Below are positions 4,600 through 63,728 of a stretch of 64,000 nucleotides of DNA, in pieces. Made by a program: the position numbers and the translations under genes. The notes under the pieces were generated by a model. It worked only from the letters and a program-made list of their open reading frames with translations, was not told the DNA's origin and did no database searches. The stretch is from Candidatus Omnitrophota bacterium (GTDB taxonomy: Bacteria; Omnitrophota; Gorgyraeia; Tantalellales; Tantalellaceae), in contig JBDRBG010000013.1 in the NCBI GenBank assembly GCA_043823005.1, forward strand, positions 25,233 to 89,232, read 5' to 3'. The number at the start of each line of letters is the position of its first letter. Positions within the stretch are counted from its first letter, which is position 1.

Positions 4600-7418
<2,819 letters not shown>

Positions 7419-10263: not shown

Positions 10264-10302
10264 CCGTCTTTGCGAGGGAGCAAGAGCGCCCGCGGCAATC
10301 TA
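10264..10302 (+). repeat. family-1 intergenic repeat (CGTCTTTGCGAGG..GCGGCAATCT)
   Basis: CCGTCTTTGCGAGGGAGCAAGAGCGCCCGCGGCAATCT, preceded by the ACGGTTAACCGT palindrome module. Confidence 0.85.
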
Positions 10303-23832: not shown

Positions 23833-23873
23833 GTAAATAGGGACGTCACCCGCCAGGGAGACGTCCCTATTTA
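23833..23873 (+). repeat. GACGTC-centred hairpin element (family 2), copy 1
   Basis: GTAAATAGGGACGTC-ACCCGCCAGGGA-GACGTCCCTATTTAC. The stop codon of the upstream gene lies in the left arm. Confidence 0.8.
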
Positions 23874-23947
23874 CATTAAGCTATTCTCCTGGTAAACTAG
23901 GAAAATATGCAGGCAAGTAATAATAGTTTCAAGCCAGAGATGTATTC

Positions 23948-24343
23948 ATGCTCAACAATTTGAACAAAAGAAAAGTTTTTGTTACGACACTTTACACAAG
24001 CATTTTTTTCTTGCTTGGAGTGTCTTTTTTGTTTGGGTCTTTTTTCTCTGGGATTTTAATGTTTTCATTGATAACAAGTCTTAAAATGCGACATCAGCAC
24101 AAAAACACAGCAGCAATCATTCTTTTAGTTCTATCCATACTATTTTTAGCATATCCCGGAACATTTATGACAGGAGAAACAGAGGATTTGTTCGCTGTAA
24201 AAATAATGCCGGTTATTTATCAAGAGCACTATCTAAAAGGAGAGGTCAGACAAATAAAAGGAAACATTGTTTTTTGTAAGCATGAAAAAATACCTTTTGC
24301 GCCTAAATGGGCGCTAGTCTTTTGTTTTAGCGGTAGTAAATAG
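23948..24343 (+). CDS. small membrane protein, hypothetical
   Basis: 131 aa with two or three TM segments. It lies between two identical hairpin elements. Confidence 0.4.
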   Translation: MLNNLNKRKVFVTTLYTSIFFLLGVSFLFGSFFSGILMFSLITSLKMRHQHKNTAAIILLVLSILFLAYPGTFMTGETEDLFAVKIMPVIYQEHYLKGEVRQIKGNIVFCKHEKIPFAPKWALVFCFSGSK

Positions 24344-24377
24344 GGACGTCACCCGCCAGGGAGACGTCCCTATTTAC
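24336..24377 (+). repeat. GACGTC-centred hairpin element (family 2), copy 2, identical to copy 1
   Basis: 42-nt identity with 23833-23873, including the embedded TAG stop. Confidence 0.8.
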
Positions 24378-25819: not shown

Positions 25820-26085
25820 AAAGTTACGATCAAAGGGGCTTATTTGTTTGTGCAGGATAACGGAGCCCAGCAAAGGGGATAAAAACTGCATTTAGAACAA
25901 CAGATATTTTCACGATTTTGCTCTCCTCGATGCCATTTAGTTTCACATGTCCAGTAACTTTGGCATTTTTCACAGCAAATAAGTTTTTTCTTCTTTTTTT
26001 GGGACATAGGGCATTCTCCTCTACATGGTATTTGAAAGCAGTAACATAATTATATAATGAAAAAGTTTTTATTTCAATACCAATC

Positions 26086-26120
26086 TGAGGGACGTCACCC
26101 GACAGGGAGACGTCCCTATG
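26086..26120 (+). repeat. GACGTC-centred hairpin element (family 2), diverged copy 3, fused to a family-1 repeat
   Basis: GAGGGACGTCACCCGACAGGGAGACGTCCCTATG is immediately followed by CGTCTTTGCGAGG...GCGGCAATCT. Confidence 0.7.
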
Positions 26121-26124
26121 TATA

Positions 26125-30375: not shown

Positions 30376-30443
30376 CACAAAAAGAGTCGTTGGTCGTTAG
30401 TTGTTAGTAAGAGCCGCCTCAGTGGGCCGACGGCGAAACCTTT

Positions 30444-30483
30444 CCGTCTTTGCGAGGAGGTCGCAGGCCGACGCGGCAATTTC
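30444..30483 (+). repeat. family-1 repeat
   Basis: CGTCTTTGCGAGGAGGTCGCAGGCCGACGCGGCAATTTCTC. Confidence 0.85.
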
Positions 30484-31773: not shown

Positions 31774-31791
31774 CACAGTGGGGACACGTCG

Positions 31792-31865
31792 GAAAGGGAC
31801 ACACTTCACTGACAGAATATATATGAAGTGTGTCCCTTTCAGTCATGTCCCCGAATTTTATTTTT
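31792..31865 (+). terminator. strong hairpin with T-rich tail after rnfB
   Basis: Perfect 17-bp stem GAAAGGGACACACTTCA / TGAAGTGTGTCCCTTTC with a 15-nt loop, followed by TTTTATTTTTATTT. Confidence 0.6.
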
Positions 31866-34201: not shown

Positions 34202-35170
34202 CTATCTATTATATTTTTTTAAAAATCGTTGAACTTGAAACAAATTATGAAGGTTTTCAGTAGCGCCTGTACCTCCGCAGATAAGAGCGGATACTGCTGA
34301 AGCAAAAACAAGGTCTTCTTTGGTGATATCAAGAGGACCTTGTTTTTTTTGAACGCAGTATCTGAAAAGGAGTCCCGCAGTAAAACCATCTCCCGCGCCG
34401 ATAGTATCTACAAGAGGAATCTTAAAAGCCGGACAGAATATTCTCTTTTTGTTTTTATAAAAAAAAGACCCTTTTCCTCCAAGAGTTATAACGACTTTTT
34501 GGGGAAGTTTTTTTAAAGCAGAAGAAAGAGTTTTAGAGGAAGTAATCCCAAGGGCGTCTTGTTCGCTGAGTTTTAAGAGATCAACATACCGGAGAAGCTT
34601 TTTTATCCGGATACGGGCCATTTTTTTGTTTTTGATTCTGTTTTCGCGCCAGTTAGGGTCATAGGAGATAAGAATATTCTTTTTCTTTGCCTGTTGCATC
34701 AAAGAGAGAGTGTTCTCAAAGGTAAAATTATTATAAGAAAAAGCAGAAGCAGTATGGAATGCTTTGATATTGTTGAAAATAGATGATGGAATTTCTTTTT
34801 TTGAAAAAGCAGTAATTTTGCCTTGTGTTTTATAGAAGATATACGAAGAATCTCCTTTTTTATTAATTTTGGCAATAGCTAAACCGGGTTTTATATTTTT
34901 ATTATAAACAATATTTTTTGTGTTAAGTTTTTCTTTTAACATGATGTGACAAAGATTTTTGGAAAGAAAATCAGTGCCTGTTTTTGCTAAAAGAGAAACA
35001 CGAAGGCCCAATCGGGATAAAAGAATAGCTGTATTAAAGACAGACCCGCCCGGCCGGGCGGAAAAGTCCAGGGTTGGTTCTTGTTTTTTGCCTTTTGATA
35101 TAAGGTCAAAAGCTATGTTTCCACAGCAAAGTATCATGTCGGTATTATAGCACAAGTTGTGGTGCGCCAA
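34202..35170 (-). CDS. PfkB-family carbohydrate kinase (fructokinase/ribokinase-like)
   Basis: Has the DTIGAGDGFTAGLL anion-hole motif and an N-terminal GG motif. The true start may be the internal ATG at about 35137 (MILCCGN). Confidence 0.7.
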   Translation of the reverse strand: MAHHNLCYNTDMILCCGNIAFDLISKGKKQEPTLDFSARPGGSVFNTAILLSRLGLRVSLLAKTGTDFLSKNLCHIMLKEKLNTKNIVYNKNIKPGLAIAKINKKGDSSYIFYKTQGKITAFSKKEIPSSIFNNIKAFHTASAFSYNNFTFENTLSLMQQAKKKNILISYDPNWRENRIKNKKMARIRIKKLLRYVDLLKLSEQDALGITSSKTLSSALKKLPQKVVITLGGKGSFFYKNKKRIFCPAFKIPLVDTIGAGDGFTAGLLFRYCVQKKQGPLDITKEDLVFASAVSALICGGTGATENLHNLFQVQRFLKKYNR

Positions 35171-35261
35171 ACAAAAAATTAGTTCAGAGGGACACCCCAG
35201 GGATTGAAATTGGGACAGGTCTGGGATTAATTTCAGAACCGTCCCTGATTTCCGCTCTTCT

Positions 35262-35337
35262 GTCTTTGCGAGGGAGCAAGTGTGATTGCGTCAATTCTCC
35301 GTCTTCGCGAGGAGCGTGAGCGACGCGGCAAACTCGG
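35262..35337 (+). repeat. two tandem family-1 repeats, the first degenerate
   Basis: GTCTTTGCGAGGGAGCAAGTGTGATTGCGTCAATTCTC followed by CGTCTTCGCGAGGAGCGTGAGCGACGCGGCAAACTCGG. Confidence 0.75.
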
Positions 35338-35686
35338 ATAGAAATAGAATAAAAAGAAAAAATAAACCACAGAGAGCACAGAGGCACAGAGGGGGAAATA
35401 AGGCGCCTTTGGCGCCGTTCACGGGTCAAGGGTGAAGGGAAAGCGCTTCATCCGTCATTGGAGGAGTGTAGATATTAGGGACGGTTCTGAATTTGAACCT
35501 ACACCTGTCCCAAAATTAATCCCACACCTGTCCCCTAACCGTCGAAAGTTGGGTTTTGAATGGCTCTGTGACTCAGAGGCTCTGTGGTGAAAAATCTGGA
35601 AATCGGTCTTTAAAAAAGTGAATCGTCGTTAGTGAATGGTGAATAGTGAGATTGCCGCGGTCGCTCGTGCTCCCTCGCAAAGACAG
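35338..35686 (+). repeat. upstream flank block of the giant gene: modules Y (CACAGAG-rich), Z and X (CTCTGTGACTCAGAG-containing), then an inverted family-1 copy
   Basis: Shares long stretches with 50840-51072, for example ...AGAAATAGAATAAA..AGAAAAAA..CAGAGAGCACAGAG.CACAGAGGGGG and TTGGGTTTTGAAT.GCTCTGTGACTCAGAG.CTCTGTGG.GAAAAATCTGGAAATCGGTCTTTAAAAAAG. Confidence 0.75.
35648..35686 (-). repeat. family-1 repeat, inverted orientation
   Basis: GAGATTGCCGCGGTCGCTCGTGCTCCCTCGCAAAGACAG. Confidence 0.85.
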
Positions 35687-35707
35687 AAAAGGAGGAATGA
35701 CCCATTT

Positions 35708-35750
35708 CGTCATTGCGAACCCTGAGCCAAGCGAAGGGTGCGGCAATCTC
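35708..35750 (+). repeat. family-1 repeat, diverged
   Basis: CGTCATTGCGAACCCTGAGCCAAGCGAAGGGTGCGGCAATCTC. Confidence 0.7.
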
Positions 35751-35820
35751 TAGAAAAAGTAAAAAAAAGACAGGGCTGGGAGTGGATTCAACCTGTTTTC
35801 AATCTTCAGGAAAGCTTTCA

Positions 35821-35850
35821 TTAGACTAACTAGCTTTTCCGTGATATAAT
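35821..35850 (+). promoter_or_regulatory. candidate promoter of the giant gene
   Basis: TTAGAC, an 18-nt spacer, then TATAAT, located 75 nt upstream of the ATG at 35926. Confidence 0.35.
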
Positions 35851-35925
35851 GCACGAAATATTTTTGCAAATAATGCATATATATTAGAAAATGTTAATAA
35901 TCAATACGAATAATATAACGAAACA

Positions 35926-38900
35926 ATGATACGACATCAAACAAAATACAAATTCTGGATAAAAAGTATCACAATAGCTGTTTTATGTTTGTTTGTGGTA
36001 AATGATTTTGTGTTCGCGATTAATACTATTAAGGAACGAATGCCAAAATATACATTAGCGCCTGTTTCGCGGCTTAGCCCTATGGTGACAATCACAGGAA
36101 CAGGCAAGGACTTGTCTATTGTCGAAGAATTTTCTGACATATCTAATTTAGCCGAAGAATTTAAAAAAGACATTAGTTTTTCTTATATAACGCAGTTAAT
36201 CTCCCAGGTATTAACTGATTATGGCGTTAAAATTACTGCTCAAGGATTAATAAAACTTATCAGTCAGGATCTTGCTCATATTGATTTTAAAAAATACAGA
36301 TTTGACGGATTGTATCAGGATGAAGAGGTTTTTTATCTTCCCTGTTGTCTAAGCTGTATGGGAAAAGAATGGGAAAACAAGATTTACCTCAGGTATTATC
36401 CTAAAAAATATAAACCCCAAGGATCTTTTGATGAATATAAAGTTTTAAAAACGATTGATCTGAAAAGCGAAGAAATTATTTGTGAAGTATGTTGTTTGAA
36501 AAAAGATAATCCTGAGATATTGCAGAAGTTTGTTCTTGAAAACCCGCAGAAAAAACCCGAAGACAAGAAAAACGACATGATAGATACGCGTCCTGTTAAA
36601 GCTAACCTTCTTCACGAACTATACGTCGAACATGACATGGCAGTTAAAGAGATTATAAATCTTGAAAACAAACTATTAACAGCTGTATATGGCGGAGCAG
36701 GAGCAGATATATCGAATTTTTTATTGTCTACTAACGCGCAAAAAGGATATTTTATTTCACAATATAAAAACTTTTGGTCAGAACTATCAGCACAAGACCT
36801 GAAAGAATGTTTCGAGTCTCTCAGTGCAGAAGCATATATAAAAAAATATTGCAGTAAATGGTACTCTAAAAGTAAATATCATGATGGTTATGGAACTGCC
36901 GCGTTTATCTGGACTAATTGGCAGATAATAGCAGCGCTGGCTTTAGAGCTAAAAGCAATAGGAGTTGATCTAAGCACAGTTAAAGTGATCAAAGAAAAAG
37001 GATGTCCTGCAATACAATTTAAATGGAATTATTCCGGGGCAGAAGAAAAAGAATATAAAATAATTTTTGTAAATGCGGATATAACACGTCCTGAAGAATA
37101 TCAAGACATATTAAAGGACGAGAAAATAGACATTTATTATCAGCGCGCAGGGCTTGAAATCGCAAAAAATTATAAGAAGAAAACGAAAAGTTTTATTAAT
37201 TTTATTAACCAATGCATGAGAAAAGATGGATATTATGTTACAGATGATAATATCTGGTCTTCATTTTGGTTTATAAAGGCTAAGACTCCGCCTTTTCCAG
37301 TGAAAGCTAAAGAAATAAAAACCCCCAGAATTATAGACATGGACAAAAAGGTCCTAAAATTACGGAAGTGGTGTTTTCTGGCAGCAGATAATATTAAGGC
37401 TTATGGAGTTTGCGTAAATATCAGAAAAAAGCTTGATACGGAAAACGAACAAGATATTAATAATAATATCGATCAGCGCCTAGTTAAAGCCGGTCTTCTC
37501 CACGAACTATATGTCGAACATGATATGGCGGTTAAGGAAATAGTCAACCCGGACAATAAACCCTTAACAGTAGTATATGGCGGAGCAGGAGCTGATATAT
37601 CAAATTTTCTTTTGTCTACAAACGCTATAAAAGCTTTTTTTGTGGATAAAGTAGAAATTGATATTGAAAGAATACAAAAGCTTAAATATGAAAGCTGGGA
37701 CAAGCTAGAGCAACTTATAGAACAGGTTAAAACAGAAGAAGGAGAATCTTACAGGGCGTATAAAGAACGGTTTGGGTATGGGATTACTTGGGGAGAAACA
37801 GAAGAAGAAAAAAAGGATCTGGAACTTCTTATTCTTTTTGAATTAAAAGCCATAGGAGTTAATAAAAACTCGATCAGGATCAGAAACAATAAAGGCTTTC
37901 CGGAGATCAAGTTCAAGTGGACTTATTTAAATGGTGTTCAAAAACAATATTCGATTACATTTATTAATACTGCTATTGATGAACCGGAAAAATACCCAAA
38001 ATTATTACAAGATGTCTTAAAGAAAAAAATAGATATTTATTATCAGAGAGCAGGTAATTATATTGCTTCTAATTATGAAAAATTCCTTCCTTTGATAGCA
38101 TCAAAATTAAAAGCGGGAGGATTTTTAATTACAGATGACTTTTTGCCTATTGGGACCAGCGGATCTTTTTTGAAAAAACTCGTACAAAAGCATTTAAAAG
38201 ATATGTATATAGCTAATCCAGATTTGCTTTTGGCAGATAAAGAGCGGTCAATTTTTACTCAAAAAGATGAAATGAAAAATGACAGGATAAAACAAGCGGA
38301 GAGAAAAATCATAGAAGATAGACAACGTTATGTAAAGGATAGCAGCGGCAATTTTTCCCACTATGGCTGGGATGTTCATTTGCGCCAAAAAATAAGGTCT
38401 GTGAATACTGTCAAACCGCCTCCGGGGACGCCTGCTACGTTATTAAAATATATGTATGATAACAAAATATTTAAGGATAACGCGAAAACAGCTATGGATA
38501 TGGCAGGGCAAAGAGGCGGCAAAGATAGCCTTTCTACAATATATTATGAACTAAACGTTTTAAGAAGAGTTGGTTTAGCGATAAAATCCGGGACAAGGTA
38601 TTATTTGCGGGAGGAGGCCATAGAGATGCTTCCGGAGACAATAATAAATGAAAACCCTGAATTAAATATTGCTTACCCTTCGGAACAAGAGAAAACCAGG
38701 ATGAAAGAGCGGCTCAAAACCGGGTTTTCTCCAAAGACAAAAATTGATTTTTTGCGAAACCAGGGTTTTATCGGGCCGAAAGATATTATGAACGAATTTG
38801 GCAGGAAAAGAAAAAAAGGAGAACAGCAGTTTTTATGGGACGATGTGACGGATCCTGCAAAACTTTTTATGATAAATAAACTTGCCGGAAGTTTTGGGAT

Positions 38901-41900
38901 ACAGCCGGGAGAATTAACCGTGGGCCATTTCATGAAGAATAGGGAAGTTTTTAACGGCAAAAACATTCGAAGTCTTATTAACTGGTTTGATGCAAAATCC
39001 GGATGTAACGGCAGTTATAAGGAAGCATTAAAAAAACTGAAACAATATTTTAAAATACAAGATTTAATAGACAGGCAAATTCAAACAAGTGAACTTTTGC
39101 GTTTAATAAGACAAGGAAGAGCAAAAGAGGGAATAAATATATGGGAAAGAAGCATAAAATCGGCAAAATTATTTGTTCTTCAAATAGTTTCCGCAAAGAG
39201 AAGAAAGAAGATAGAACAGTTAAATGTTTATGATATTAGGGGCGGATTAGCCTGTTTTAAAGGCAACGGTGTTTCAGGGATCATCGATTGGGCGATGCGG
39301 AAGTTTTACTGCAAAAACAGCAGTGGAGTAGGAGTTCACCGTTTGAAAAAGTATTTAGGCAAACAAGACAAGGTTCCTCCGCATCCGGTATTATGTTTAT
39401 TTTGTACGGATTGGGAAGAGGCGATTAAGTCCGGAGTATTGTCATGCAAGACGTTAGCCGAAGAAGTAAGAGCCGTAGATTTAAAGGTAAGAGAATCTTT
39501 TAACGGAGAGGATGAACCGCATTATAATGCCGAATATTTTTCAACTGTAAGAATATTAGAAAAAAAAGATTTTATATTGCCTGTTTTAAAACAATGGAGT
39601 GGAGCCAAAAACAAGATTGGGATTGAAAGCCTTATGCGGATATATTGCCGGCAAATAAGGCCCATATTATATGGGCTCGATGAAAAGAAAAAATCAGGTT
39701 GTGATAGTATTGATGTTCCATCCCGGAATCTTGTTTCGGAAAAGCCGGTTCCTGATAAGCAAGAAAACAAAATAATTTTTAGAGGAATCGGCAAAAATGA
39801 AGATATGGATTATACGAATCTTTTCAGGGATCTGGATGCGGAAACCAGGGCCTTAGGCTGGCCTTTAGCGCGCAGACAAAGATATTTAACCCTTTTAGCT
39901 TCTATTAATAGCCTTGAAAGTAGAATGAAAGAGCTGACAGAGCGGGAATTACAGGCAAAAACAAAGGAATTTAAGGCGAGATTAGATTTAGAAGAAACAC
40001 TTGACGATCTTTTACCCGAAGCTTTTGCTGTTGTCAGGGAAACCGCGCGGCGCGTAATAAACGAAAGGCCGCATGATATACAAATTCTGGCCGGTATAGC
40101 TATGCATGAAGCTAAAGGAATAGAAATGGATTCCAGCCAGGGCAAAACTTTGACCGCGATGATGCCGGCTTATTTAAATGCTTTGACAGAACGGGGAGTG
40201 CAAATACATACGACTAACAATTATTTAGCTAAAAGAGACGCCGATTATATCGGTCGGATTTTTGACTTTTTGGGCCTAACCAGCGGAGCTATTACTTCAA
40301 AAGGATCTTTTTTGTTTAAAAAAGAAGGTAATCCGCGGACAACAAGTAAAATAAGAAACCTTTGCGTATTACCGCACAAAAATCAGGAGGAAATCAGGGT
40401 TTCTAAAAGAAGGATATATAATACTGATGTTGTGTATGGTTGGGCGAGAGAAATAGTTTTTGATAAGCTTAAGGATGACCTGGCTGACGGAAGGGGCAAT
40501 CTGGTTCAAAGAAACCTTGCTCCGGAGCTTATTATTGTGGATGAAGCAGACAGCCTTTTAATTGATGAGAATAAAGACATGTTGGTTTTAGCCGCGCAAA
40601 ATAAGAACTTTTTTGAGAGAAGATTTTTTGAATTAATATATGACTTTTCCGGCCGTTATATTCCGAAAATAGATTACAGCGTCGATATATACGAAAGAAC
40701 AGTATCTTTAACAGGAACAGGGAAAGTTTTGATCGAAGAGCTGTTATTGGAATCTCCGGCGCTTAAAAAAATAGACAGAGAGTATCTTGTTCTATTAATG
40801 GAAAAAGCCCTGGAAATACAGTTTTACGCGAAGGATGAAGATTATACTGTATGTTCGGGGAAAAAAGTTGTTATTGTTGATAAGTATAGCGGCAGGTTAA
40901 AAGACGGAAATGTCTGGGAACATGGGGTACAGCAATTTATAGAAAAACAGGAAAAGACTGTTTTACATGAGATGATCTTTTCGGTGCATGAGATGACGTA
41001 TAAAAACTATTATGGGCATCAGGAGAAAATAGCTCCTATGAGCGCTACTCTTTTGAGCGAGGAAGAAGAAATATCAGCTAATTATGGAGTAGAAATAGTA
41101 AAGATGCCTTTGCGAGTAGAGTCAAGACGCGAAAATTTGTATCCTTTAGTTTTTTTAACAAAAGAAGAAAAAAGGGCCGCTATATGTAAAGATGTTCTAG
41201 CTATGCAAAAGAAAAGGCGTCCTGTTCTGATCGGGGTGTCAACTATCAGGGAAGCTGAGAATATAAAAAAAATATTGAATAAAGCGGGTATTTTTCCGGA
41301 AATTCTGGACGGTAGGAACGAAACGATTGAAAGCAGTATTATAGAACGAGCCGGACAGTGTTCGGGCGTAACTATAGTTACACCGGCCGGAGCAAGAGGA
41401 GTGCATATACGGCTTGGGCAAGGTGTTTCTGCGCGCGGCGGTTTGCATGCAATAGGAGGGGTTTTTTATGAGAACAAGAGAATGGAGGATCAATTTAATA
41501 AACGCGCGGCCAGAGGCGGAGACCCCGGAAGTTCAAGAAATTATATATCGTTAGATGAAGAGAATATACGGATTTTTGGAGGAGATGACAGAAAAAAACT
41601 AAAACAAGCCCTGAAAAACCTTGAACAATTGGGCCTTTCACAGGAAGAAGCGATTTTATCTTCTGAAGGCAGAGAAATAATAAGAAATATTCAACATTTG
41701 CTCGGCAGGATTCGTAAGCGGCAGGAAGATTACGTCAGGCGGTCAAGAGAACGATTTTTAAAATATGATGATATTATAGATCCTTTTAGGGAATGTTTTT
41801 TCTCTTTTCGCCGAAGCATTCTTGAACTTGAGGATGAGGGGGAAAGAAGAAAAACATTAAAACTGATTGATGATTTATGGATACGATGTCAATTGGATTT

Positions 41901-44900
41901 AAGCAGGTTAAAGGGCCGGGTAGATATAAAAAAATATGAAAAAATAGTAAATATGAAATTTGACAAAATAGCGGATTGTATTAAAAATAATTGTAAAATA
42001 ATTCCCGCCCCAAAACAAAATATTCCGGGCGGTGAAAATATCGAGCTGATGGAACAAATGGCTTTTAGTCCGGAAACACAAAACATATATATCCATAAAA
42101 ACTCGATTTTAATAAAAGAATATGAATTTATGTTCGAAGCAGGAGAAAAACAATTAAAAGAGCAGGTTCTCTTAATAAGCGATTTTATGGGCGGAAACAT
42201 CCCAAAGATCAACTTGATGGAACTCATCAAAAGAAAACAGGAAAGGATTGAAAAAGCGATAATAGCCAGGGCAATACTGCAGACTGAAAGCGACAGAGAG
42301 ACAGCAGAACTTTTGAATTGTGAAGAACGGTTTGGTTATAATAAAAGAAAACAATACGGATGGGACAGAAAGGAATGGCATAAAATAATAGAATATTCCG
42401 AGGGTGTACCGTATGTTCCGTTTTTGGGAATAGATCTAAAAAAAATATTAAAGGAAGTACGGGAAACGCTCGGACAGTATTTAGTTAAAGGGGCGCTTTT
42501 TTGGACAACCGGCGACAAAACAAAAGCCCTGGAAAAACTGGGAGTAAATATTGATACAGGAAAGGAGATAACGGAGTTATTGGCAAAATACAGGGGAGAT
42601 AAGCAATATGTCGCGCAAAAATTACATATAACAAAAAATCAACTGAATTTATGTCTTCAGGAAACAAAAGAAGTTTTAGGGTGGCTAGAAGATGTGTGCG
42701 CGTTGGAAGTGCCTGAAGAACCAAAAACCTGTGTATTTGAGGATATTCGGGGATATTCTTATCAAAATGATTTGAAATGCGGATTTATCCAATCAAAAAC
42801 AGGAAAAGCGCCTGAAGCACTGGGGAAAATACGCAAAGAACAAAGAGAAAAGCTTTCGCCGGTCAATATTCCGGATTCCGAAGATCTTGTAAATTATATT
42901 CAAACAAAAATAGATCTATTTCCTCAAAGCTTTTTGCAAACAAATTTACCTGAATGGATAACGATGCAGGTTTCTGTTTGCCGCAGAGAATTCAATGGAG
43001 CTCTTGAAAGGATCAAAAATAATAAAATATTTTCTTTCAAAGCCTTGATATATGACGATGAAGATTATGCTTTAGGATACGGGGATGAGGAAGAAATAGG
43101 GATAGCAGAAGAACTTTTAGGTTTAGAAAAACCTCTTTTAGCCGAATATCTTTTTCATGAAGCAATTTGTTTTAAGGTGGGACATAAAAAGGCAAGAGAA
43201 TTGCAGAGTTTTCTTTTCCCTGAAAACTATAGCACAACAGACGCCGGCATTCGAAAAAGTAAATTACAGGAAGAGCTTCGAGCCGTTATAAAGAAGAAGG
43301 TAGATTCAAAAGAGCCGGAATCAAAAAAAGAAGAAGCAGATGCTTTGGAAGAAAAGGGCATAGAACAAGAAGAAAAATTTACAGGAATACGATTTTTAAA
43401 AGACAGAATTCTTATAATAAAGAAAGATTTCAGGTTTTCATTACAGACTCCGCGCGTTAAAGACGCGTTATCTCGTATGCATAATTTTATGCGCAAAAAA
43501 CTTCCCTCTATTGACATGAATCAATTGATAAAAAAGATAAAGGAAGAAATAGAAAAACCATTAATTGCCGGAGCTTTTGTTCAAACAAAAGGAAAGAAAT
43601 GCCAGGCTATAGAATTACTTGATATGTATTCGGCAGAATTTCACAATAAATTTCAAAAGTACAATTTCTTGGATACTGAACTTTTGCGGGAATATGCTAA
43701 AAACGTTCCCGTAATCCCGGCTGAAGGAATAGAGTTAAAAAAAATAATCAAAGAGGCAGTTAATAAATTAGAGAAACATTTAATTGTCAGGACATTGAAG
43801 CAGACAAAGGGACATAGAAGCGAAACAGCTAAACGGTTAAAAGTTTCTCTGGCCGGATTGTGGTATAAAATAAATCAGCTTTTTGAAGAGAACGACGGCA
43901 TTTCTAAAGTTTCAACAGGGACTAAAAGGAGAGAGGATATGCCTGTGGATACAGAGCCGGCAATAGAGGTGTCAGACAGCCTTAGTGGCGATAAATTAGA
44001 AGCAGGTGGGCAGGTAGAGGATGTTGTTACATCAAAAAAGCCTGCTTGGGCCGGGTTCAAAGGGCTTTCGCTCAAAGAAATGGATGAAATAATAGCTATC
44101 ATAAATAGGAACGCACATCTAAAACAAGCCGCGGCTAAACTCGGAATGTCGCATTACAAGCTTGGAACAAAGATACAAGAAATAAGAGAGAGCGCTTTAG
44201 TCCGGGAAGATAAAAGGCGTATCGAGAGCCTGGACAGGGCTTTAGTATTTTTGCCGAGTTATACTAATAGGTTATTAAACGCGTTAAAAAAGACAAACGG
44301 GAATCAAACAATGGCAGCGCAAAGATTGGGACAGCAGCCCGCGTATATCAGTATGATGCTAAAAACAGCAAAAAAAGCCATTATTAACAAGGGCAACGGT
44401 TATTTGTTTGCGAAATATGATCAGTTGCCGGTTTCTAAGCGCGGAAAAGGAAGAAAGAAAAAAGAAGAAGGCATAATGCCGCATATCAATAAAGCTGAGG
44501 CAATAGTGGAAACAACAACTACAGAAGATAACATTCCGGAAGAAAAAATTGAACCAAAAACAATAGAAAATCTGAGAGATGCAGGAGAACTTCATAGCGA
44601 TACAGAAGAGACAAAAGATAGAGAAGCCGTAATTGATGCGGCGATAGAGGAAATAACAACTACAGAAGATAATAGTCTGAAAGAAAATATTGAACCAAAA
44701 ACTGATGTTCAAGAAACAGAAGAAATGCAAGAGACACAAACAATTGCAGAACCTGTTTTGCAGGAAGAAGAACAAGTTCAAGTAGAAGATATAGAACTGC
44801 CGGAAAATAAAGAAATCTTACAGAAAGTAAAAGACCTTGGATGGGATAACAAAACAATTGTGAGGTATTTGGGACAGCTGAACAGGATTAATGAATTAGA

Positions 44901-47900
44901 AAAAGACATACAAGCTTTGTCTGACAAAGAACTGGCGCTAAAAACGCAAGAGTTCAAATTAAAATTAAAAGACAAAACGACACTTGATGATATTTTACTC
45001 GAAGCTTTTGCTGTTGTCAGGGAAACTGCCTGGCGTGTAATCGGCAAAAAACCTTATGATGAACAAATATTAGCCGGGATCGCTATACACGAAGGCAAAG
45101 CAGTGGAAATGATATCAGGCGAAGGCAAGACTTTAGCCGCAATTATGCCCGCGTATTTAAATGCGTTAACGGAAAAAGGCGTACATATACATACAGTTAA
45201 TGATTATTTAGCTAAAAGAGACGCAAATCTTATGGGACAGGTGTTTGATTTTCTTGGATTACGGACAGGGGTCATTGTGCAGGGTAAATCATATTTATTT
45301 GATAAACAACTTAAGCGTACAAGAGAAGAAGATTTTAATTTTCTTAGACAATCCAACAGGGCTATCATGATGACCAAAAAAGACGCGTATGAGGCAGATA
45401 TCGTATACGGATATAACAGGGAACTGGCGTTTGATCATTTACGCGATAATTTAATACATAAAGCAACCGCGAGAGTGAACGGAAGATCTCCGGTGCTTAC
45501 AATTGTGGACGAAGGAGACAGCATCTTAATCGATGAAAATATAGAACCTTTAGTAATATCCATACCTAGGACAGATAATCTTTTAAAATATATATTTAGA
45601 GAGGTTTATAAGTTTTCCAAGAACTTGGTTTATGGAATAGACTACGAAATAAATAGTTTAGAAAAAATAGCTATTTTAACCGAAAAAGGGAAAGAACGGA
45701 TTAAAGACTATATAAAGGAGAATCAGTACTTAAGCAATATGGATATTTATTTATTAATTGATTTTACGGAAAACGCGATAGCAAGTGAACTGTATGTGAA
45801 AGATGTAGATTATGTGGTAGAAAAAAACAATGCCGGCGAACAAGAAATAGTTGCTTATGATGAAATTTCGGGAAAATTAAAATCTCAAAGTGTATGGGAA
45901 AAGGGATTACAGCAGTTTATTGAATTAAAAGAAGACTGCATTCTTACAGCTGTCTCACCTGTTGTAATAGCGATCTGTTATAAGAATTATTATTCTAAAA
46001 TGGAGAAGCTATCCGCGATGAGCGGAACCTTTGAATCCGTGGCCCAGGAAGCAAAGAAATATTACGGTTTAGAATTTTTGAAAATACCTATGCGTAATGA
46101 ATCTCAGAGAAAAGACTTGCCTGATATTATTGTAGCCACTGATAAAGAAAAGTGGACTCTGATAATAAATGATATTTGCGAAAAATACACAAAAGGACAG
46201 CCAGTTTATGTTGGGACGAGGAGCATAAAAGAAGCAAAGTGGCTGAAGGAACAAGTACAAAAGAAAGGGATTCATGCTAATGTTTTTGACGGACTGGATC
46301 CTCGCAATGAAGAAAGAATAATCGGGGATGCCGGCCGGCCCGGGGCTGTAACGATTACAACGCAAATAGGAGGAAGAGGCGTAGACATTGAAGTTCCGGG
46401 TGTTTCGGTGCGAAGAGGAGGGTTGTATGTGATAGGATCTGGTTTGTATAAAGATAAACGGGTAAAAGGCCAGTTGAGATTTCGGACAGGAAGAAACGGA
46501 CAGGTTGGGAGCACGGTATTTTATGTTTCTTTAGAGGAAGAAGATATTGTTTTGTTCGGAGAAGAAGAGCTCATTAACCTCAAGAAGGAAGTAGATTCTT
46601 TGACAAAAATGAGCAGAAAAGAAAGAACAGGGCGGGATGATGTCCGAAGGGATATTTTGAAAAAACAAATAAAACAGAGGGTGGAAACGATCCAAAAACA
46701 GATGCAAGAATATAGGTTTAATATGCGGGAATATGCAATTCAAATAGACGATAGACTAGATTATAAAAGACGATTTTTTTATTGTATGAAAAACATGAAT
46801 AGTCAACGGCATAATTCAGACAAGGGTTTGATAAGATTAAATAGTTTATGGGCATCTTATTTTAGTAATATATGGCCAACAAGAAACAGGATTTCAAAAG
46901 CAAAAAATATACAGGAAGACATTTTTGATAAAGGATTTCAACAAATGATTAGAAAAATAAAACAGGTCCCTTCTTTATATGAAGAACTATGGGATGTAAA
47001 TGTTCCTTCTGGTTTTTATGATTTATTAAAAGATATCAATCGGGAACAGAAAACTCAGGAAATAGGTATTTTTGAAAAAGGAGAGAGAGAGTTTGATTTA
47101 ATAAATAAAACGTGCGGATTTAAATTTAGTATCGGGCAAAGCGGTTATGGTAACACCGTCGAATTATTAAAAAATCGTATGCATGGGATAAAACTACGGG
47201 ATTTCATAACCGCGATAACTCAGGAAACTGAGAAGTTTTTAATATTAAAAGGTTTAGCAGAAACCGGCGGGAAGAAAGAATCGGTTGCAAAATTATTAAA
47301 AATGGGCATTAATACTTTAACTGATCGAATCCAAAAATATCACTTAGAAAAAAGTGAAAGTTTAAAGAAAAATATTAGAAATAACGCAGGCCTTTTGTTT
47401 GAAAATAAACATTTTTATCAAAGGGTTAAATCGATAGTTGAGGAATCTGAAAATTGTCTGATAATGTGTGTTTTAAGAGAACAGGATTTTGATGTAAAAA
47501 AAACAGCTAAAATATTAGATGTCAGTTTAGGGTATATCATTTTTAAAGTTTTAGAGATAAATGCAAAAATAGAGTTTAAAAAAAACCTTTATTGTGACAT
47601 GACAGAAAAGACAGAAGAAGAGAATGAGGAAATGCCTGTTGTGTCCGGTTCGTTTTCACAAAAAGACGTGGCGTATAAGATAGTTATCCAAAACAACGGA
47701 CTTAATATAGAGGGAAAAGATTTTAATATGACAATCTCAACGCCGCGAATAAAACAGTGTTTGCTTTCAATCGCAAATTTTGCAAAAGGGAGGGAAGCTC
47801 AAATAAATTTAATGGAAATAAAAGAGGAAATAGGGAATGAATTAATGAAGAGTATTTTTTGCAAAACTAAAGAGAACAACATGCATAGTTTTGATATTGC

Positions 47901-50718
47901 TCAATTAACGGAAGAAGAAGGAAATGAATTAAAAAGAAGAATAGAGATAGACGGCTTAAGTTCTTTGCAAGGGGCAAAAGAATACACAAGAAATGTGTTT
48001 GTGGTGTTTAAAGGGAAAATAGATCTTTTAGGGCGGAAAGAAGATATAACAACTGCTATAGAAAAATATGTGATTGTGCAAGCTCTTAAGATGGCGCAGG
48101 GTGAAAAAGAATTAGCGGCGCGAAAACTTCTTATTCCGGAAACTGTGCTGTATCCCAAAATAGAACAAATTATGACACCAGGGACTCTGGATAAAACAAC
48201 TGTTAGTATTGAATATGATTTTACGGATCCGGAATTATTTAAAGAAGCTAAGGAAAGAGAAAATTTAGCTATTGAAAGGCAGATCCGGGATTTTTCAAAA
48301 GGGGAAAAAGATACTATTGATTTAAACGAACTCAAGGGATTAATGAAAAGGGAAATAAATTTTGCAATGGTTTCCTGGGCATTGAAACAATCAGGAGGAA
48401 ACAAGGCTAAAGCGGCGGAATTATTAGGTGTTAGCAAAAGGACGTTGTGGAACAAAACAGAAGAGCAGAATCTGGGGTATGCGGATATACAGGAACTAGA
48501 CGCGGTAAGAGCCGTAGAGACATCTGATAAGACTATAACATTAATTGAAAGGGTGCGCAAAACTAACCAAAAACTGGAGGAATATTTGATGGTCCAGGCA
48601 TTAATATTGACAAAAGGAAACAAACAAGAGGCAGCACGTAAATTAGGGATTTCAAGACGTACTTTGTATGACTATTTAGAACGGAGTAACAAGAGAGAAG
48701 ACTATGCCCCAAAAAGCTTTTGCTGTATGAAACAAGATATCGAGTTAGACAAACTTCTAAAAGAGATTAGATGCTATTTTAGGGCGCGAGAACAAGAAGA
48801 ACTTTTAGTTGATTCTAATATGTTGAAAAAAGAATGGCTGAAGGAAGAAAAAATGGAAGAGAGTGTAGCTTTTTTCTTATCTTTTTTTTCTGAAGGAATG
48901 GTAGATATTGTTAATGAGATCAGACAATTTGAAATGAACGCAATAGAGAATATTGATTTGACAAAACTAATACAAAGAATAGCAAACGAAATAGAAGCGA
49001 TGATAATTTCTGAAATATTACATAAAACAAAAGGTCATAGAACTAAAACAGCAGAATTGTTAGAAGTGAGCAGAAGGACGCTTTATGAGAGGATGGAACA
49101 ATGCAAACTGCTTTATCCTGAAAGAACAGCACAATACGCGGAAAAAGCGAAATGGGGCAAAGATGTTCATGTTAAGTTAAAAGATGTGCGGGCAAAGATC
49201 GATGACAAAATGAAAGAATATTTAAGCAGAGTTGCTTTGTTGAAAACCAAAAGGAATCGCACAGCAGCGGCGTGTTGTCTAGGGATTTCCAAACGTACTT
49301 TATATGACTATTTAATTGAAATAAACAGTGCAAGAGGCGACAAAGAGTATTCATTAGCATTTGTTAAAGAATTCAAGAGTTTACCCGTACTGCTAGAAGA
49401 AATCTTACAATGTTTGACGAAACCTTGTTCGCTTGAAAAGAATATATTCCGGGAAGAAATGGATAGCCTTGTCGGCCATGCAAAACCAGAAAAAAAAGAC
49501 ATACTTACTATAGACGAAGCCTATCAATATGTTGCTAAAGCAACAGAAAATATTGATACGGACAAGTCAATGGCTATAACAGAAGAGATTTTAAAGTACC
49601 CAATAAACGATATTTTGGTTGTGGGCACAGGTTTGATCGGGATGTCGTTTTTATTGGCGCTTATGGATAAACAAGTGACTTTTGTGGATCCTTGCGTGGA
49701 CAAGGTCCGGGATATGGAGCGATGGGCTCAAGCAATAGAGCAACAGACAGGACAACCCCTAAACATACAATTTGTTTGCGCATCAATCGATGAAATTAAT
49801 GAACAAAAGTATGATCTTATTACTTTGATTGATTTTGAAGAAAACGCATTAGGTGTCGAATTTGACAAAGCATTATCAAAGGCTCGGGAAATTCTTCGCG
49901 AAAGAGCATATCTTGTAATAGATAGTAACTATAACGGAAAGGGAATAAAAGTTCTAGAGGATTATTTTAAGACCTGGCAAATGTCCGGTAACAATAAGTT
50001 TTATGAGGGGAGAATCTCTAAGTATGCAAAGAACCGGATTGTTTTAGTCGAAAATCCGGAGGTAGCAGAACCAGAGAAAGAGATATTTGAGCAAGAGCAA
50101 AACAGTGCAGGAAAAGATTTTTTTGATGAACTGATTATTCAAGCAATTAAGGCAAAGCGACGCAGAGAAAAAATATTGATAGCTATTGATATAAGCTGGA
50201 TCCCTGAGATGCATCAATCTTTTATGCAGGGGGTTTTAAATCAATTGGCGCGGATATACAGAAAAAAAGGCCTGGATAATGTTTTAATACATAGAAGGCC
50301 TGACGCGGAAAGGACGATAAAGATGATAAAAGACACAATTTTTTATGAAGATATTAAACTATCAAATGTTATAGCTGTTACAGGAAAAGAAACAATAGAA
50401 TCCGGATTTTTTAATGAAATAAGAAGCAGTGAAAATGAAAAAAAAGCGCTTTTACTCGGGATCAGCAATAAGGATTTGAACGGAGAAATTGATTTGGAGG
50501 ATATGGTCAATTATATCGGAATTTTAGAAATGCTTACAGGTGCTTTAAAATTAGTTTCTTGTAAAAAAGAACCGGAATCAATCGAAATTCCCGGTGTCGG
50601 AGAATTTAAAAGAATAACACCGCGTACCTGGGTAGTATTTCCCAAAGAACGCAGACTAGTTGAAGAAGTAAAAAAAGAATATAAAACCCAAAAAAAACAC
50701 ATAAAATCCGCCGCATAA
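35926..50718 (+). CDS. giant multidomain protein (4930 aa): TM N-terminus, tandem ~300-aa repeats, two SecA-like ATPase modules, multiple Fis/NtrC-type HTH modules and a C-terminal Rossmann-like domain
   Basis: Uninterrupted 14.8-kb ORF. SecA hallmarks occur twice ([10 protein letters not shown], GxGKTL, [9 protein letters not shown](R/K)GV(Q/H)IHT(T/V)N(N/D)YLAKRDA, IVDE(A/G)DS(L/I)LIDE, GGRGVDI/GARGVHI, GDPGSSR-like). There are 12 or more HTH units of the form ...TKGN(K/R)[18 protein letters not shown]. Confidence 0.8.
   Translation: [4930 protein letters not shown]
39880..41830 (+). other. SecA-like motor module 1 within the giant ORF (NBD1, NBD2, helical scaffold-like)
   Basis: [13 protein letters not shown]...[16 protein letters not shown]...[37 protein letters not shown]...[12 protein letters not shown]...[10 protein letters not shown]...[21 protein letters not shown]...[12 protein letters not shown]. 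Confidence 0.75.
44870..46790 (+). other. SecA-like motor module 2 within the giant ORF
   Basis: [17 protein letters not shown]...[16 protein letters not shown]...[37 protein letters not shown]...[12 protein letters not shown]...[11 protein letters not shown]...GGLYVIGSG...[27 protein letters not shown]. Confidence 0.75.
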
Positions 50719-50803
50719 ACCCCGGAAATGGGGACGGTTGTTGTATACGCTCAATAATTTGGTAACATTTTTTAAGGGGGCCTTACTGCTAACTTCGTTT
50801 GTC

Positions 50804-50839
50804 GTCATTGCGAGAAGCAAGAGCGACGCGGCAAACTCG
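50804..50839 (+). repeat. family-1 repeat
   Basis: CGTCATTGCGAGAAGCAAGAGCGACGCGGCAAACTCG. Confidence 0.8.
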
Positions 50840-51072
50840 AATGAAAATAGAATAAAGAAAAAAAATTAACCTCAGAGAGCACAGAGACACAGAGGGGGGA
50901 AACAAACTGAGGCGAGAAGAGGGAAAAAAGATATTGTTGGGTTTTGAATAGCTCTGTGACTCAGAGACTCTGTGGAGAAAAATCTGGAAATCGGTCTTTA
51001 AAAAAGCGAATAGTAGTTGGTGCATAGTGGAAAGAGATTGCCGCGGTCGCTCAAGCTCCCTCGCAAAGACGG
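50840..51072 (+). repeat. downstream flank block of the giant gene, homologous to 35338-35686
   Basis: Modules Y and X and an inverted family-1 copy occur in the same order as upstream. Confidence 0.75.
51034..51072 (-). repeat. family-1 repeat, inverted orientation
   Basis: GAGATTGCCGCGGTCGCTCAAGCTCCCTCGCAAAGACGG. Confidence 0.85.
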
Positions 51073-51171
51073 ATGAGGTTCGCTTTCGGACGTGTCCTGC
51101 GCCTGAGCAACGCGAATGGAACAGGGAGATGGCTCCGACTAACGACCCCCGACTAACGACTAACGTGCCGG

Positions 51172-51250
51172 AATGGGGACGTTTCTGAAACTAATCCCAG
51201 ACCCGTCCCAATTTCAATCCCACACCTGTCCCCTAACAGTTGATAGGCAG
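51172..51250 (+). repeat. module Z (AATCCCAGACCCGTCCCAATTTCAATCCCACACCTGTCCCCTAAC)
   Basis: Direct copy of 35463-35550 and inverted copy of 35190-35250. Confidence 0.7.
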
Positions 51251-51358
51251 TTTGTAGATGGTCCTGAAACTGATGCAGTAGATGTCCCTAATATAAAAAT
51301 CACTTGCGTTGTTTAGCGTTATTTGATAGAATCACAGCTTACAAGAATCACATTCTAT

Positions 51359-51433
51359 CGCGGGGTGGAGCAGAGGTAGCTCGTGAGGCTCATAACCTCA
51401 AGGTCGGAGGTTCGATTCCTTCCCCCGCAACCA
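51359..51433 (+). tRNA. initiator tRNA-fMet (anticodon CAT)
   Basis: CGCGGGGTGGAGCAG...GGCTCATAACC...GGTTCGATTCC...CCCCGCAACCA. The C1-A72 mismatch and three G-C pairs in the anticodon stem match bacterial initiator tRNA. Confidence 0.85.
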
Positions 51434-61599: not shown

Positions 61600-62394
61600 A
61601 TGGATTGGGGAATGAAAAATCGTTTGAGCAATCTTTTCCAGGCAGACGGACATTGTTTCTTTTTGCCTATAGATCATGGTTATTTTCAAGGGCCTACACA
61701 TTGTTTGGAAAAACCCGGAGAGACTATAGCTCCGCTTCTTAAATATTGTGACGCGCTTTTTGTTACACGGGGCGTATTACGTTCGTGTGTGGAACCGGGC
61801 ATCGAAAAACCCATTATATTAAGGGTTTCCGGAGGCACCAGTGTTGTGGGAAAGGATCTGGCAAATGAGATTTTGACGACTTCTATAGAAGAAATCCTCA
61901 GGCTTAATGTGTCAGCTGTCGGAGTTTCGGTGTTTATCGGAAGCGATTATGAAAAAGAAACATTACGCAATCTCGCGGATCTTGTAAATAAATGTGAAGG
62001 GTACGGTATTCCTGTAATGGCTGTGACTGCGGTAGGAAAAGAGATGGTAAAACGAGAAGCAAGATATCTCGCGTTATGCTGCCGTATTGCCGCGGAATTA
62101 GGCGCAAAAGTGGTAAAAACCTATTGGTGCGCGAAAGATTTTGATAAAGTTATAAAAGGATGTCCGGTACCGGTAGTTATGGCTGGAGGGCCTAAATGTG
62201 AAACAGCGCTTGAAGTTCTGGAATTTGTTTATGACGGTATGCAGAAAGGTTCTGTCGGCATAAACCTGGGAAGAAATGTATGGCAGAACGCTCATCCTGT
62301 TGCTATGGCAAAATCTTTATACGCGGTTATTCATGAAAAAGCTACGCCAAAAGAAGCGTATGAAATATTTAATGAAGAGATCAATAGTCGTTAG
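61600..62394 (+). CDS. class I aldolase of the DhnA/FbaB (DeoC-like) family
   Basis: The ATG at 61600 is preceded by AGGAGG. The family assignment is by general resemblance and I did not locate the Schiff-base lysine. The last codons (NSR plus stop) are provided by the AGTCGTTAGTCGTT repeat module. Confidence 0.65.
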   Translation: MDWGMKNRLSNLFQADGHCFFLPIDHGYFQGPTHCLEKPGETIAPLLKYCDALFVTRGVLRSCVEPGIEKPIILRVSGGTSVVGKDLANEILTTSIEEILRLNVSAVGVSVFIGSDYEKETLRNLADLVNKCEGYGIPVMAVTAVGKEMVKREARYLALCCRIAAELGAKVVKTYWCAKDFDKVIKGCPVPVVMAGGPKCETALEVLEFVYDGMQKGSVGINLGRNVWQNAHPVAMAKSLYAVIHEKATPKEAYEIFNEEINSR

Positions 62395-62483
62395 TCGTTC
62401 GTCGTTAGTAGGAGCCCTCTCCTGAGGGCGAACAGAATGAAGGGAAAAGAGAAAAGGAAAAAGTTGGGGAGAGAATTTTTTTC

Positions 62484-63561: not shown

Positions 63562-63567
63562 CGTGTT

Positions 63568-63711
63568 ATAAATGGGGACGAGTGTACGCGCTCAACAATT
63601 AAGTAACAGTTCTTAAGGGGGTACTTCCTGCTAACTTCGTCTGTCGTCATTGCTGGAGCATGAGCGACGCGGCAAACTGGGTGGGAAGTAAATGGTGACG
63701 TCCCCATTTAT
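63568..63711. mobile_element. MITE-like 144-bp element with perfect 13-bp terminal inverted repeats
   Basis: ATAAATGGGGACG at 63568-63580 and CGTCCCCATTTAT at 63699-63711. The interior carries a family-1 repeat copy and is homologous to 50725-50840. Confidence 0.6.
63644..63680 (+). repeat. family-1 repeat inside the MITE-like element
   Basis: CGTCATTGCTGGAGCATGAGCGACGCGGCAAACTGG. Confidence 0.75.
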
Positions 63712-63728
63712 CTAATTTAAACAAAAAA

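Follow-up and report, generated by a model that had tools for sequence, protein, structure and literature searches.

A composite foldback repeat in both spacers beside a giant gene at a conserved locus of Candidatus Omnitrophota

At tRNA genes, genomic islands are bracketed by direct (att) repeats that originate from the 3' end of the tRNA, and the miniature inverted-repeat transposable elements (MITEs) and modular repeats of bacteria include Correia, BOX, RUP and Nezha. A study of CGTC-tagged repetitive extragenic palindromic sequences (REPs) reported dimers of oppositely oriented repeats, whose conserved spacers carry complementary ends, and no dedicated transposase; in the defining geometry the stem has 8-9 bp, the loop 4-5 nt and the tail 3 nt (Di Nocera et al. 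2013, PMC3733652, Table 1). For the Omnitrophota, another report describes proteins of at least 30,000 aa with SecA-like domains (West-Roberts et al. 2023, 10.1101/2023.11.21.568195), and mobile-element-rich flanks have been found at some giant-gene loci of this phylum (2026 preprint, 10.64898/2026.06.07.730766). Here we analysed a 64 kb stretch of a 90,132-bp contig from a Candidatus Omnitrophota metagenome-assembled genome (MAG) deposited at NCBI (proteins MFH1846108 to MFH1846146), called the window below and used for all repeat counts unless stated, in which a giant gene (35926..50718, + strand) lies between two copies of one composite foldback repeat. In an initial annotation of this DNA, the repeats had been considered a possible footprint of insertion, or of recombination-mediated gain or loss, of the giant gene. 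Our analysis indicates instead that the gene is probably old and vertically inherited, and that the repeats are later colonists of the spacers, with the composite unit probably copied whole into both of them.

The two repeat blocks contain three modules in the same order on either side of the giant open reading frame (ORF), at 86-89% identity: module Y (35370-35395 and 50873-50898), module X (35549-35618 and 50937-51006) and an inverted copy (35648-35686 and 51034-51072) of a dispersed repeat, here called family-1. All of these had been placed correctly in the initial annotation, as had one inverted and two direct copies of a further module, Z. Its description of a mosaic in one common order holds for Y, X and the inverted family-1 copy and fails for Z, which lies between Y and X upstream and after the inverted family-1 copy downstream. 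The similarity extends over two collinear segments. The first (35300-35398 against 50803-50901; 99 nt, ungapped, 86% identity) runs without interruption through a family-1 variant, an A-rich stretch and Y, and the second (35548-35684 against 50936-51070; 137 nt, 89%, with a single 2-nt indel) runs likewise through X, a GTGAAT module and the inverted family-1 copy. The alignment that had been suggested as a check thus revealed extended collinearity beyond the family-1 background. The offsets between the paired segments were 15,388-15,503 bp, and the longest identical run between the two blocks was 30 nt. The chance expectation of the module patterns, obtained from shuffled sequence, was 0.00. 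A sensitive nhmmer scan of the window did not reveal Y or the X core anywhere else, and X, Y and Z were all confined to the flanks of the giant gene. When the 29 spacers of the window were compared with each other (406 pairs), the two spacers flanking the giant gene shared 279-287 nt, and the next best pair shared 90-100 nt. The block similarity is real and goes well beyond the family-1 background. Adjacent spacers shared modules more than random pairs did (P = 0.0012); bracketing by shared modules was nevertheless not retained as a general trait of neighbouring spacers, P being 0.055 without the giant-gene pair.

At the start of the shared unit is a direct family-1 variant (35300-35335 upstream and 50803-50838 downstream), which had not been singled out in the initial annotation, and therefore each block is bounded by inverted family-1 arms. 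Based on alignments and folding, the order within the unit is the direct family-1 variant, the A-rich stretch, Y, a variable loop, X, a GTGAATnGTG module and the inverted family-1 arm. The downstream unit (50803..51072, + strand, 270 bp) has the A-rich stretch and Y at 50839-50901, a 34-nt spacer at 50902-50935, X at 50936-51006 and the module, in the form GTGnATAGTG, at 51007-51033. In the upstream unit (35300..35686, + strand, 387 bp), the A-rich stretch and Y (35336-35398) are followed by a 149-nt insert with a GC hairpin (35402-35416) and a direct Z copy (35467-35547), and then by X (35548-35618) and the GTGAATnGTG module (35619-35647). The upstream unit is longer because its loop holds this extra DNA, including Z, which forms a clean insertion of 70-71 nt between GATATT and GTTGGG.

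Both units can be folded into hairpins. The CTCTGTG...CTCTGTGG parts of X form the complement of module Y (CCACAGAG...CACAGAG), and the family-1 arms, compared with each other's reverse complement, were identical at 32/39 positions in the upstream unit and 31/39 in the downstream unit. Folded as single strands, both units formed a long hairpin in which arm pairs with arm and Y with X, at -71.5 kcal/mol (z = -5.4) for the upstream unit and -39.2 kcal/mol (z = -3.05) for the downstream one. No compensatory change in the Y/X stem was seen by eye between the two copies, two sequences having no statistical power in this respect. The family-1 cores of the window are 19 direct and 3 inverted, and two of the three inverted ones are the right arms of the two units. 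Since the alignments are contiguous across the module junctions and this rare orientation is shared, the unit appears to have been copied whole and not assembled twice. The two unit copies are about 11% divergent, whereas dispersed family-1 copies differ by 3-8% from one another, which suggests that the duplication was not recent or that each copy was derived from other masters elsewhere in the genome. No target-site duplication was seen at the ends of the units (flanks ...ATTCTC/unit/AAAAGG... upstream and ...GTTTGT/unit/ATGAGG... downstream), and a 78-aa ORF across the downstream unit had no protein homologue. An X 20-mer gave only chance matches in GTDB representative genomes (Fictibacillus) and two matches with no extended similarity in JGI metagenome contigs, both being collections without the source MAG. 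An X 25-mer had no match in IMG/VR, and a Z 17-mer gave six single matches, about the estimated chance number.

The arms of the unit belong to a repeat family that is spread over many spacers of the window. Family-1 has the form (C/T)GTC(T/A)TTGCGAGG, 12-22 nt, CGCGGCAATCTC (core examples at 10266, 30490 and 59341), and 22-23 copies were counted in the 64 kb, all of them intergenic and distributed over 16 of about 28 spacers. Among 23 aligned copies 14 start with CGTC and the remainder with TGTC. Single units of the main subtype fold no better than shuffled sequences (z about 0), and RNAalifold found five invariant pairs and no covariation in this subtype; the D3 subtype has a better stem (z = -1.6). 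Of the 22 cores, 19 lie on the + strand, which is the leading strand of this origin-proximal window and at the same time the sense strand of almost every gene. Several copies were also noticed within operons (rnfA-rnfB and purD-purE), and because of this location they would be transcribed in a fixed orientation.

These properties resemble those of REP doublets and bacterial interspersed mosaic elements (BIMEs) from enterobacteria and of REP doublets forming hairpins (REPINs) in Pseudomonas (PMC3116915, PMC2817692, PMC3333891). In all of them the repeats are short, abundant and strictly intergenic, inverted pairs are able to form one long hairpin (as both units do here), the repeats are combined into mosaics with other short motifs, and a strong strand bias relative to transcription and a lineage-specific abundance are found. 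There are also differences. Family-1 is only weakly palindromic, with its five-pair consensus stem, lack of covariation and fold z about 0; the arms are spaced by 195-310 nt here and by less than 100 nt there; and only two doublets occur in the window, most family-1 copies being singletons of one orientation. Furthermore, no gene for a REP-associated tyrosine transposase (RAYT, Y1 transposase) was found in the window by Pfam scans. The CGTC-tagged REPs share with family-1 the CGTC start (in most copies), the (A/T)TTGC ... GCAA arrangement and a short tail, and their complementary-ended spacers are matched here by the spacer with Y and X at its ends (PMC3733652). However, the family-1 interior of 12-22 nt and its stem of 5 pairs depart from the geometry tabulated for those repeats, and Omnitrophota is not among the phyla listed in that paper. 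The dimers of the CGTC-tagged REPs are a close functional analogy, and family-1 is not a member of them in the strict sense. Bacterial MITEs and modular repeats (PMC3184786) agree with the unit in size (270-390 bp), in the terminal inverted repeats of about 36 nt, in the foldback structure and in the intergenic location, nested insertions and modular build. At 270 and 387 bp, and with family-1 arms as terminal inverted repeats, the two copies fall within the MITE size range of about 100-600 bp. Unlike MITEs, the unit has no visible target-site duplication and no cognate transposase in the window; no recombinase or transposase was detected when the giant protein and the remaining window ORFs of at least 150 aa were scanned with Pfam. 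Taken together, the structure is a REP/BIME/MITE-like foldback repeat of a repeat-rich lineage, which flanks an old giant gene by an accident of available space.

The age of the gene was judged from its neighbourhood. In the window the local gene order is rnfCDGEAB, purN, eno, divIC, pfkB (- strand), the giant gene (+ strand), tRNA-Met, purB, purM, purD and purE. The pfkB or giant-gene neighbourhoods of seven other Omnitrophota populations (pfkB 47-62% identical; about 200 kb in total) were compared with it, and pfkB had the same position and orientation in the loci of all seven. In five of them (L002, L003, L004, L009 and L011; pfkB 47-58% identical to that of the window), a homologous gene is divergent from pfkB within the same rnfCDGEAB-purN-eno-divIC ... 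purB-purM-purD-purE frame, the purBMDE side of which is seen only where the locus of the relative extends that far. No copy of family-1, X or Y was found in the roughly 200 kb of relatives' loci. A sixth relative, L007, has no giant gene. For such a genome the initial annotation had suggested a check for pfkB next to tRNA-fMet with a single copy of the block, and this arrangement was not seen: pfkB and tRNA-Met are separated by unrelated genes over about 2.8 kb, coding for a peptidase, an ATPase (AAA_14/DUF4143) and small ORFs, and no repeat block lies between them. Three tandem units of about 120 nt (...GGTCCCGCCGCCTGGGATTTGGGG...CCCCAAGCGGCATGGAC...) that look structured were noticed in L007 directly upstream of purB (about 6560-6960, - strand as fetched), with no Rfam match at E <= 0.01.

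The promoter of the giant gene is conserved as well. A sigma-70-type promoter (TAGACT, 17 nt, TGaTATAAT; 10/12 consensus match, extended -10) lies at 35822..35850 on the + strand, downstream of the upstream repeat block. About 35 nt of promoter sequence (GATTTTTATTGACTTAACTAGCTTTTT..TGnTATAAT) are near-invariant upstream of the gene in six genomes, those of the window and of the five relatives without the repeats (for example, L002 7873-7905 and L004 about 7917-7950). Such conservation is unusually strong for non-coding DNA, given that the pfkB proteins of these genomes are only 47-58% identical. The composition of the giant gene is native and ordinary for this genome: its GC content of 0.361 and GC3 of 0.317 lie within about 1.3 SD of the values for 26 other genes (0.397 +/- 0.027 and 0.350 +/- 0.031), and the GC skew has the same sign.

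The protein itself is 4,930 aa long and identical (100%) to NCBI protein P0121. It combines two SecA-like motor regions with five Fis-type HTH_8 domains (Pfam), and it has an anchor domain at the N-terminus as well as a C-terminal domain that is conserved. The SecA-like regions are visible in the DNA as a 300-nt repeat (39957 and 44940, 72%), and the HTH_8 domains lie near the C-terminus, which makes an odd mix of secretion motor and DNA-binding modules. The size of the gene product varies widely among the relatives: 3,704 aa in L002 (8001-19115), with no domain recognised in the interior; 6,375 aa in L003 (8001-27128), with sigma-70 r2, pentapeptide and PrmA in the interior; 4,712 aa in L004 (8001-22139); 735 aa in L009 and L010 (Candidatus Makaraimicrobium; L009 7578-9785, - strand); and 6,685 aa in L011 and L012 (L011 1-9766, - strand). 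The N-terminus is shared with L002, L003 and L009 at 34-39% identity over about 500 aa, and weakly with L004 and L011, over only the first ~120-170 aa (28% and 25.6%, the latter over 117 aa). The C-terminus is shared with L002, L003, L004 and L009 (about 30% over ~140-240 aa), the 3' end of L011 being outside the fetched locus. The 735-aa Makaraimicrobium protein is essentially these two ends joined. In library searches, relatives anchored by the first 502 residues had 680, 735, 940, 1,035, 1,780 and 6,375 aa, and the module at residues 215-445 was found in about 350 representative proteins of 250-7,864 aa. The gene thus behaves like an expandable scaffold, in which the promoter and usually both protein ends are kept and the interior ranges from nearly nothing to about 6,000 residues. 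In comparison with the giant proteins of West-Roberts et al. (10.1101/2023.11.21.568195), the phylum is the same, and SecA_DEAD and preprotein-binding domains without the rest of SecA and an N-terminal membrane anchor occur in both; however, the window protein is far smaller and carries its five Fis-type HTH domains, and the pattern of a conserved locus with a variable interior was not found in the available text of that report. A scaffold gene with a fixed promoter, fixed ends and a variable interior offers a tractable entry to how giant genes grow.

Compared with its relatives, this genome is repeat-swollen throughout, and the repeats are lineage-specific. The swelling is seen when spacers are compared with those of L002: rnfA-rnfB has 591 bp in the window and 27 bp in L002, purD-purE 131 and -4 bp, rpiB-glyA 241 and 31 bp, and nrdR-surA 256 and 4 bp. 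The spacers on the two sides of the giant gene are the two longest repeat-filled ones of the window, with 788 bp between pfkB and the giant gene (233-280 bp in L004 and L002) and 640 bp between the giant gene and tRNA-Met (84-227 bp in L004 and L002). When the repeat blocks are subtracted, 213 and 122 bp remain. These lengths match those of the relatives, and therefore the blocks are net insertions into spacers of normal size. The upstream block lies between the two divergent promoters, and the downstream one is found after the stop codon and before the promoter region of the tRNA gene, the pfkB and tRNA promoter positions being a reading of the sequence.

The tRNA gene on the right of the giant gene (51359..51433, + strand; ARAGORN, Rfam 62.8 bits) was confirmed as the tRNA-fMet of the initial annotation: it is a tRNA-Met(CAT) of the initiator type, with the C1:A72 mismatch of bacterial initiators and 2/3 of the anticodon-stem G-C pairs. 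The downstream block had been described as abutting this gene, whereas about 110 nt without any repeat module lie between them. A near-identical tRNA-Met adjoins the giant gene in L002 (19343-19417, - strand), L004 (22224-22298, + strand) and L009 (7333-7407), and is found at the same locus in L007 (7119-7193); the contig of L003 ends before this position, and the 3' side of L011 is outside the sample. The tRNA gene is oriented like the giant gene in the window and in L004 and opposite to it in L002 and L009, and in L007 it has the same orientation relative to pfkB and purB as in the window. Two extra genes and a run of N lie between tRNA-Met and purB in L004. The pfkB-purB interval is structurally plastic within an otherwise rigid synteny.

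From the block homology and collinearity, the foldback potential, the conserved synteny and the absence of the repeats from the relatives, we infer a copying mechanism and an order of events as follows. The giant gene would have been resident at the locus between pfkB and tRNA-fMet-purB before these lineages diverged. Later, small structured intergenic repeats would have proliferated in the lineage of the window and swelled many spacers. The composite unit may then have been copied whole, either by non-autonomous foldback transposition or through gene conversion or short-range recombination involving neighbouring spacers, and would have landed in the only dispensable DNA available, the two spacers beside the giant gene. 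The upstream unit would subsequently have received a nested Z, with further, separate arrivals of Z at the far left and in the spacer downstream. The direct repeat with its spacing of 15.5 kb would therefore be a by-product of repeat spread and not a footprint of the arrival of the gene.

Several points weigh against this explanation. As regards mobility, only two unit copies are seen in 64 kb, no target-site duplication is visible, and the window has neither a transposase nor a RAYT. X, Y and Z occur only at the giant-gene flanks, and this pair of spacers is about three times more similar than any other; because neutral random dispersal does not predict such exclusivity, there is room for selection or for purely local copying. 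In addition, very recent lineage events would be invisible, because even the closest relatives are distant (pfkB at most 62% identical). Finally, a Z-like foldback is found in the distant relative L002 at the same position between the giant-gene stop codon and tRNA-Met. This foldback (19116-19330) is a near-perfect one of 215 nt, located between the stop codon and the 3' end of the convergent tRNA-Met; it has the ends CAGGGACGTTTTTCA / TGAGAAACGTCCCTG and 24-nt AATCTCAGACCyGTCCCC units, and its fold z is -9.3. Both the units and the end motif GGGACGtTTCTcA of this foldback agree with the Z module of the window despite the distance between the genomes. In the window, the inverted Z copy (35189..35254, - strand; nhmmer E = 1e-13) has the end motif GGGACGGTTCTGA and ~24-nt AATCCCAsACCyGTCCC units, and the downstream direct copy, also found with nhmmer (51167..51245, + strand), starts with GGGACGTTTCTGA.

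The exclusivity of X, Y and Z to these two spacers, the likeness of the flank pair, by far the most similar of the 406, and the position of the Z-like foldback in L002 favour an alternative that we consider unlikely, in which the Y-X foldback and the Z arrays are functional boundary elements selected at both ends of a 15 kb transcription unit. They could be protein-binding or supercoil-insulating sites, like the E. coli BIMEs that bind gyrase and IHF, or could act as a terminator or RNA-stabilising hairpin downstream and as a promoter-upstream element upstream. There is also no canonical intrinsic terminator between the giant-gene stop codon and the tRNA, a role that the hairpin could fill, and the three Z copies of the window, as read from their sequence, all appear to point to a downstream promoter. 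However, the homologous gene has short repeat-free upstream spacers in L003, L004 and L009, and the downstream spacers of L004 and L009 are repeat-free too. The upstream unit precedes the conserved promoter and is outside every predicted transcript; having the same sense and not being complementary, the two copies are unable to pair with each other; and no compensatory change between them was seen by eye in the Y/X stem. A role of Z as a promoter-upstream element was rejected, since the Z-like element of L002 lies 3' of both convergent genes. It is rather improbable that the foldback units and Z act as paired boundary elements in the narrower sense, either as topological or nucleoid-protein insulators or as substrates for reversible recombinational loss of the giant gene in the population; if true, this would account for the restriction of X, Y and Z to the flanks within 64 kb, for the likeness of the flank pair and for the position of the L002 foldback.

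A hotspot where modules accumulate was the fallback of the initial annotation; it comes closer to the evidence than an insertion footprint does but is incomplete. In a pure hotspot the two long spacers would have gathered the same modules one by one, with the shared order a coincidence. The flanks of 788 and 640 bp offer the most room of the repeat-filled spacers, the modules family-1, GTGAATnGTG (five copies), D3, D7 and W are truly dispersed in the window, and Z is independent of the unit, with a differing position in each block and one clean nested insertion. Against this idea, the modules were not gathered singly, the composite unit having been copied whole: the alignments of 99 and 137 nt are contiguous over module junctions, the order and orientation are identical even for the inverted family-1 arm (only 3/22 cores are inverted), and X and Y are found nowhere else in the window. 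We therefore regard independent gathering as improbable.

The remaining question is whether the giant gene is a cassette, inserted beside tRNA-fMet or gained and lost via the direct repeats of about 250 bp, which would then be att-like scars. The locus does resemble a tRNA-associated island in that a large gene adjoins a tRNA gene and is bracketed by direct repeats, here of 99 and 137 nt at 86-89% identity; the longest identical run of 30 nt is about the minimum for RecA-dependent recombination; the pfkB-purB interval is plastic, with the gene absent in L007 and reduced to 735 aa in L009, tRNA-Met flipped in L002 and L009 and extra genes in L004; and the mobile-element-rich flanks of other giant-gene loci (10.64898/2026.06.07.730766) would fit. 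Nevertheless, insertion is contradicted and a cassette is very improbable, as five distant relatives without these repeats carry a homologous gene at the same locus, behind the same promoter and with unrelated flanks (its N-terminus common to all five, weakly in L011, and its C-terminus to the four with a sampled 3' end), an outcome that the initial annotation had named as refuting. In addition, the upstream block lies outside the conserved promoter, the window encodes no integrase in Pfam scans, the repeats are located 5' of the tRNA, contain none of its sequence and were not derived from its 3' end, the base composition is native, the two block copies are 11% diverged, and the junction in L007, where the gene is missing, is free of the block. 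A weaker version, an occasional repeat-mediated deletion of the giant gene, is a minor possibility. The preferred explanation, an old gene with later repeat colonists, thus does away with a tempting but wrong conclusion, namely that mobile cargo is what a giant gene of the Omnitrophota represents, as direct repeats around a gene can come from small foldback repeats spreading into the only free DNA nearby. It also documents uncharacterised repeat families (the CGTC-headed family-1, Y/X, the GGGAC-ended Z, and W) in a MAG-dominated phylum, where such repeats affect assembly and gene calling and possibly transcription.

Among the neighbouring genes, the left one encodes a pfkB-family sugar kinase (34202..35137, - strand; Pfam PfkB E = 3e-39), divergent from the giant gene, with a product of 311 aa that is 100% identical to NCBI protein P0001. 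An apparent extended -10 box (TGcTATAAT) at 35135-35152 on the - strand ends 6 nt before the NCBI ATG, and this sequence suggests a leaderless or near-leaderless pfkB mRNA. The window opens with the replication origin region, where dnaA (1838-3244), dnaN, gyrB and gyrA lie at 1.8-9.9 kb and the GC skew becomes positive. The + strand holds nearly all genes of the window. On the 3' side of purE, genes for a low-molecular-weight phosphatase, rpiB, glyA, a dCMP deaminase, nrdR and surA (- strand) follow. Neither giant-gene spacer matched any Rfam family, and BLAST of both spacers against plasmid and phage records gave no match.

Other repeats in the two spacers lie outside the composite units. Upstream, a direct family-1 copy with a degenerate 3' half is found at 35259..35297 (+ strand), and a family-1-like repeat of the D3 subtype, with an ACCCT...AGGGT stem and four copies in the window, at 35694..35763 (+ strand). 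Downstream, inverted copies of other dispersed modules are located at 51073..51165 (+ strand), with partners at 30427-30457 and 62385-62422, and module W, which starts with AAATGGGGACG, at 50723..50802 (+ strand). W has a second copy at 63567-63644 (91 nt, 86%), directly 3' of an alcohol-dehydrogenase gene. W followed by a family-1 variant ending in GCGGCAAACT was seen twice in the window, and the W element at 63.6 kb (63571-63712) is closed by the inverted ends AAATGGGGACG / CGTCCCCATTT and looks like a foldback element of about 140 bp.

A membrane-like ORF of 131 aa (23948-24343) is bracketed by two perfect 42-nt palindromes that are 100% identical to each other (GTAAATAGGGACGTCACCCGCCAGGGAGACGTCCCTATTTAC; 23833-23874 and 24336-24377; fold z = -9.3). 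A RAYT-like gene between these palindromes was considered and rejected, since the Pfam scan gave a small membrane-like ORF with no transposase domain. A third copy of the palindrome, 79% identical, lies 1.7 kb further on at 26082-26123. Modules Z and W, the 42-nt palindromes and a hairpin at 31780-31852 all have ends of the form GGGAC...GTCCC.

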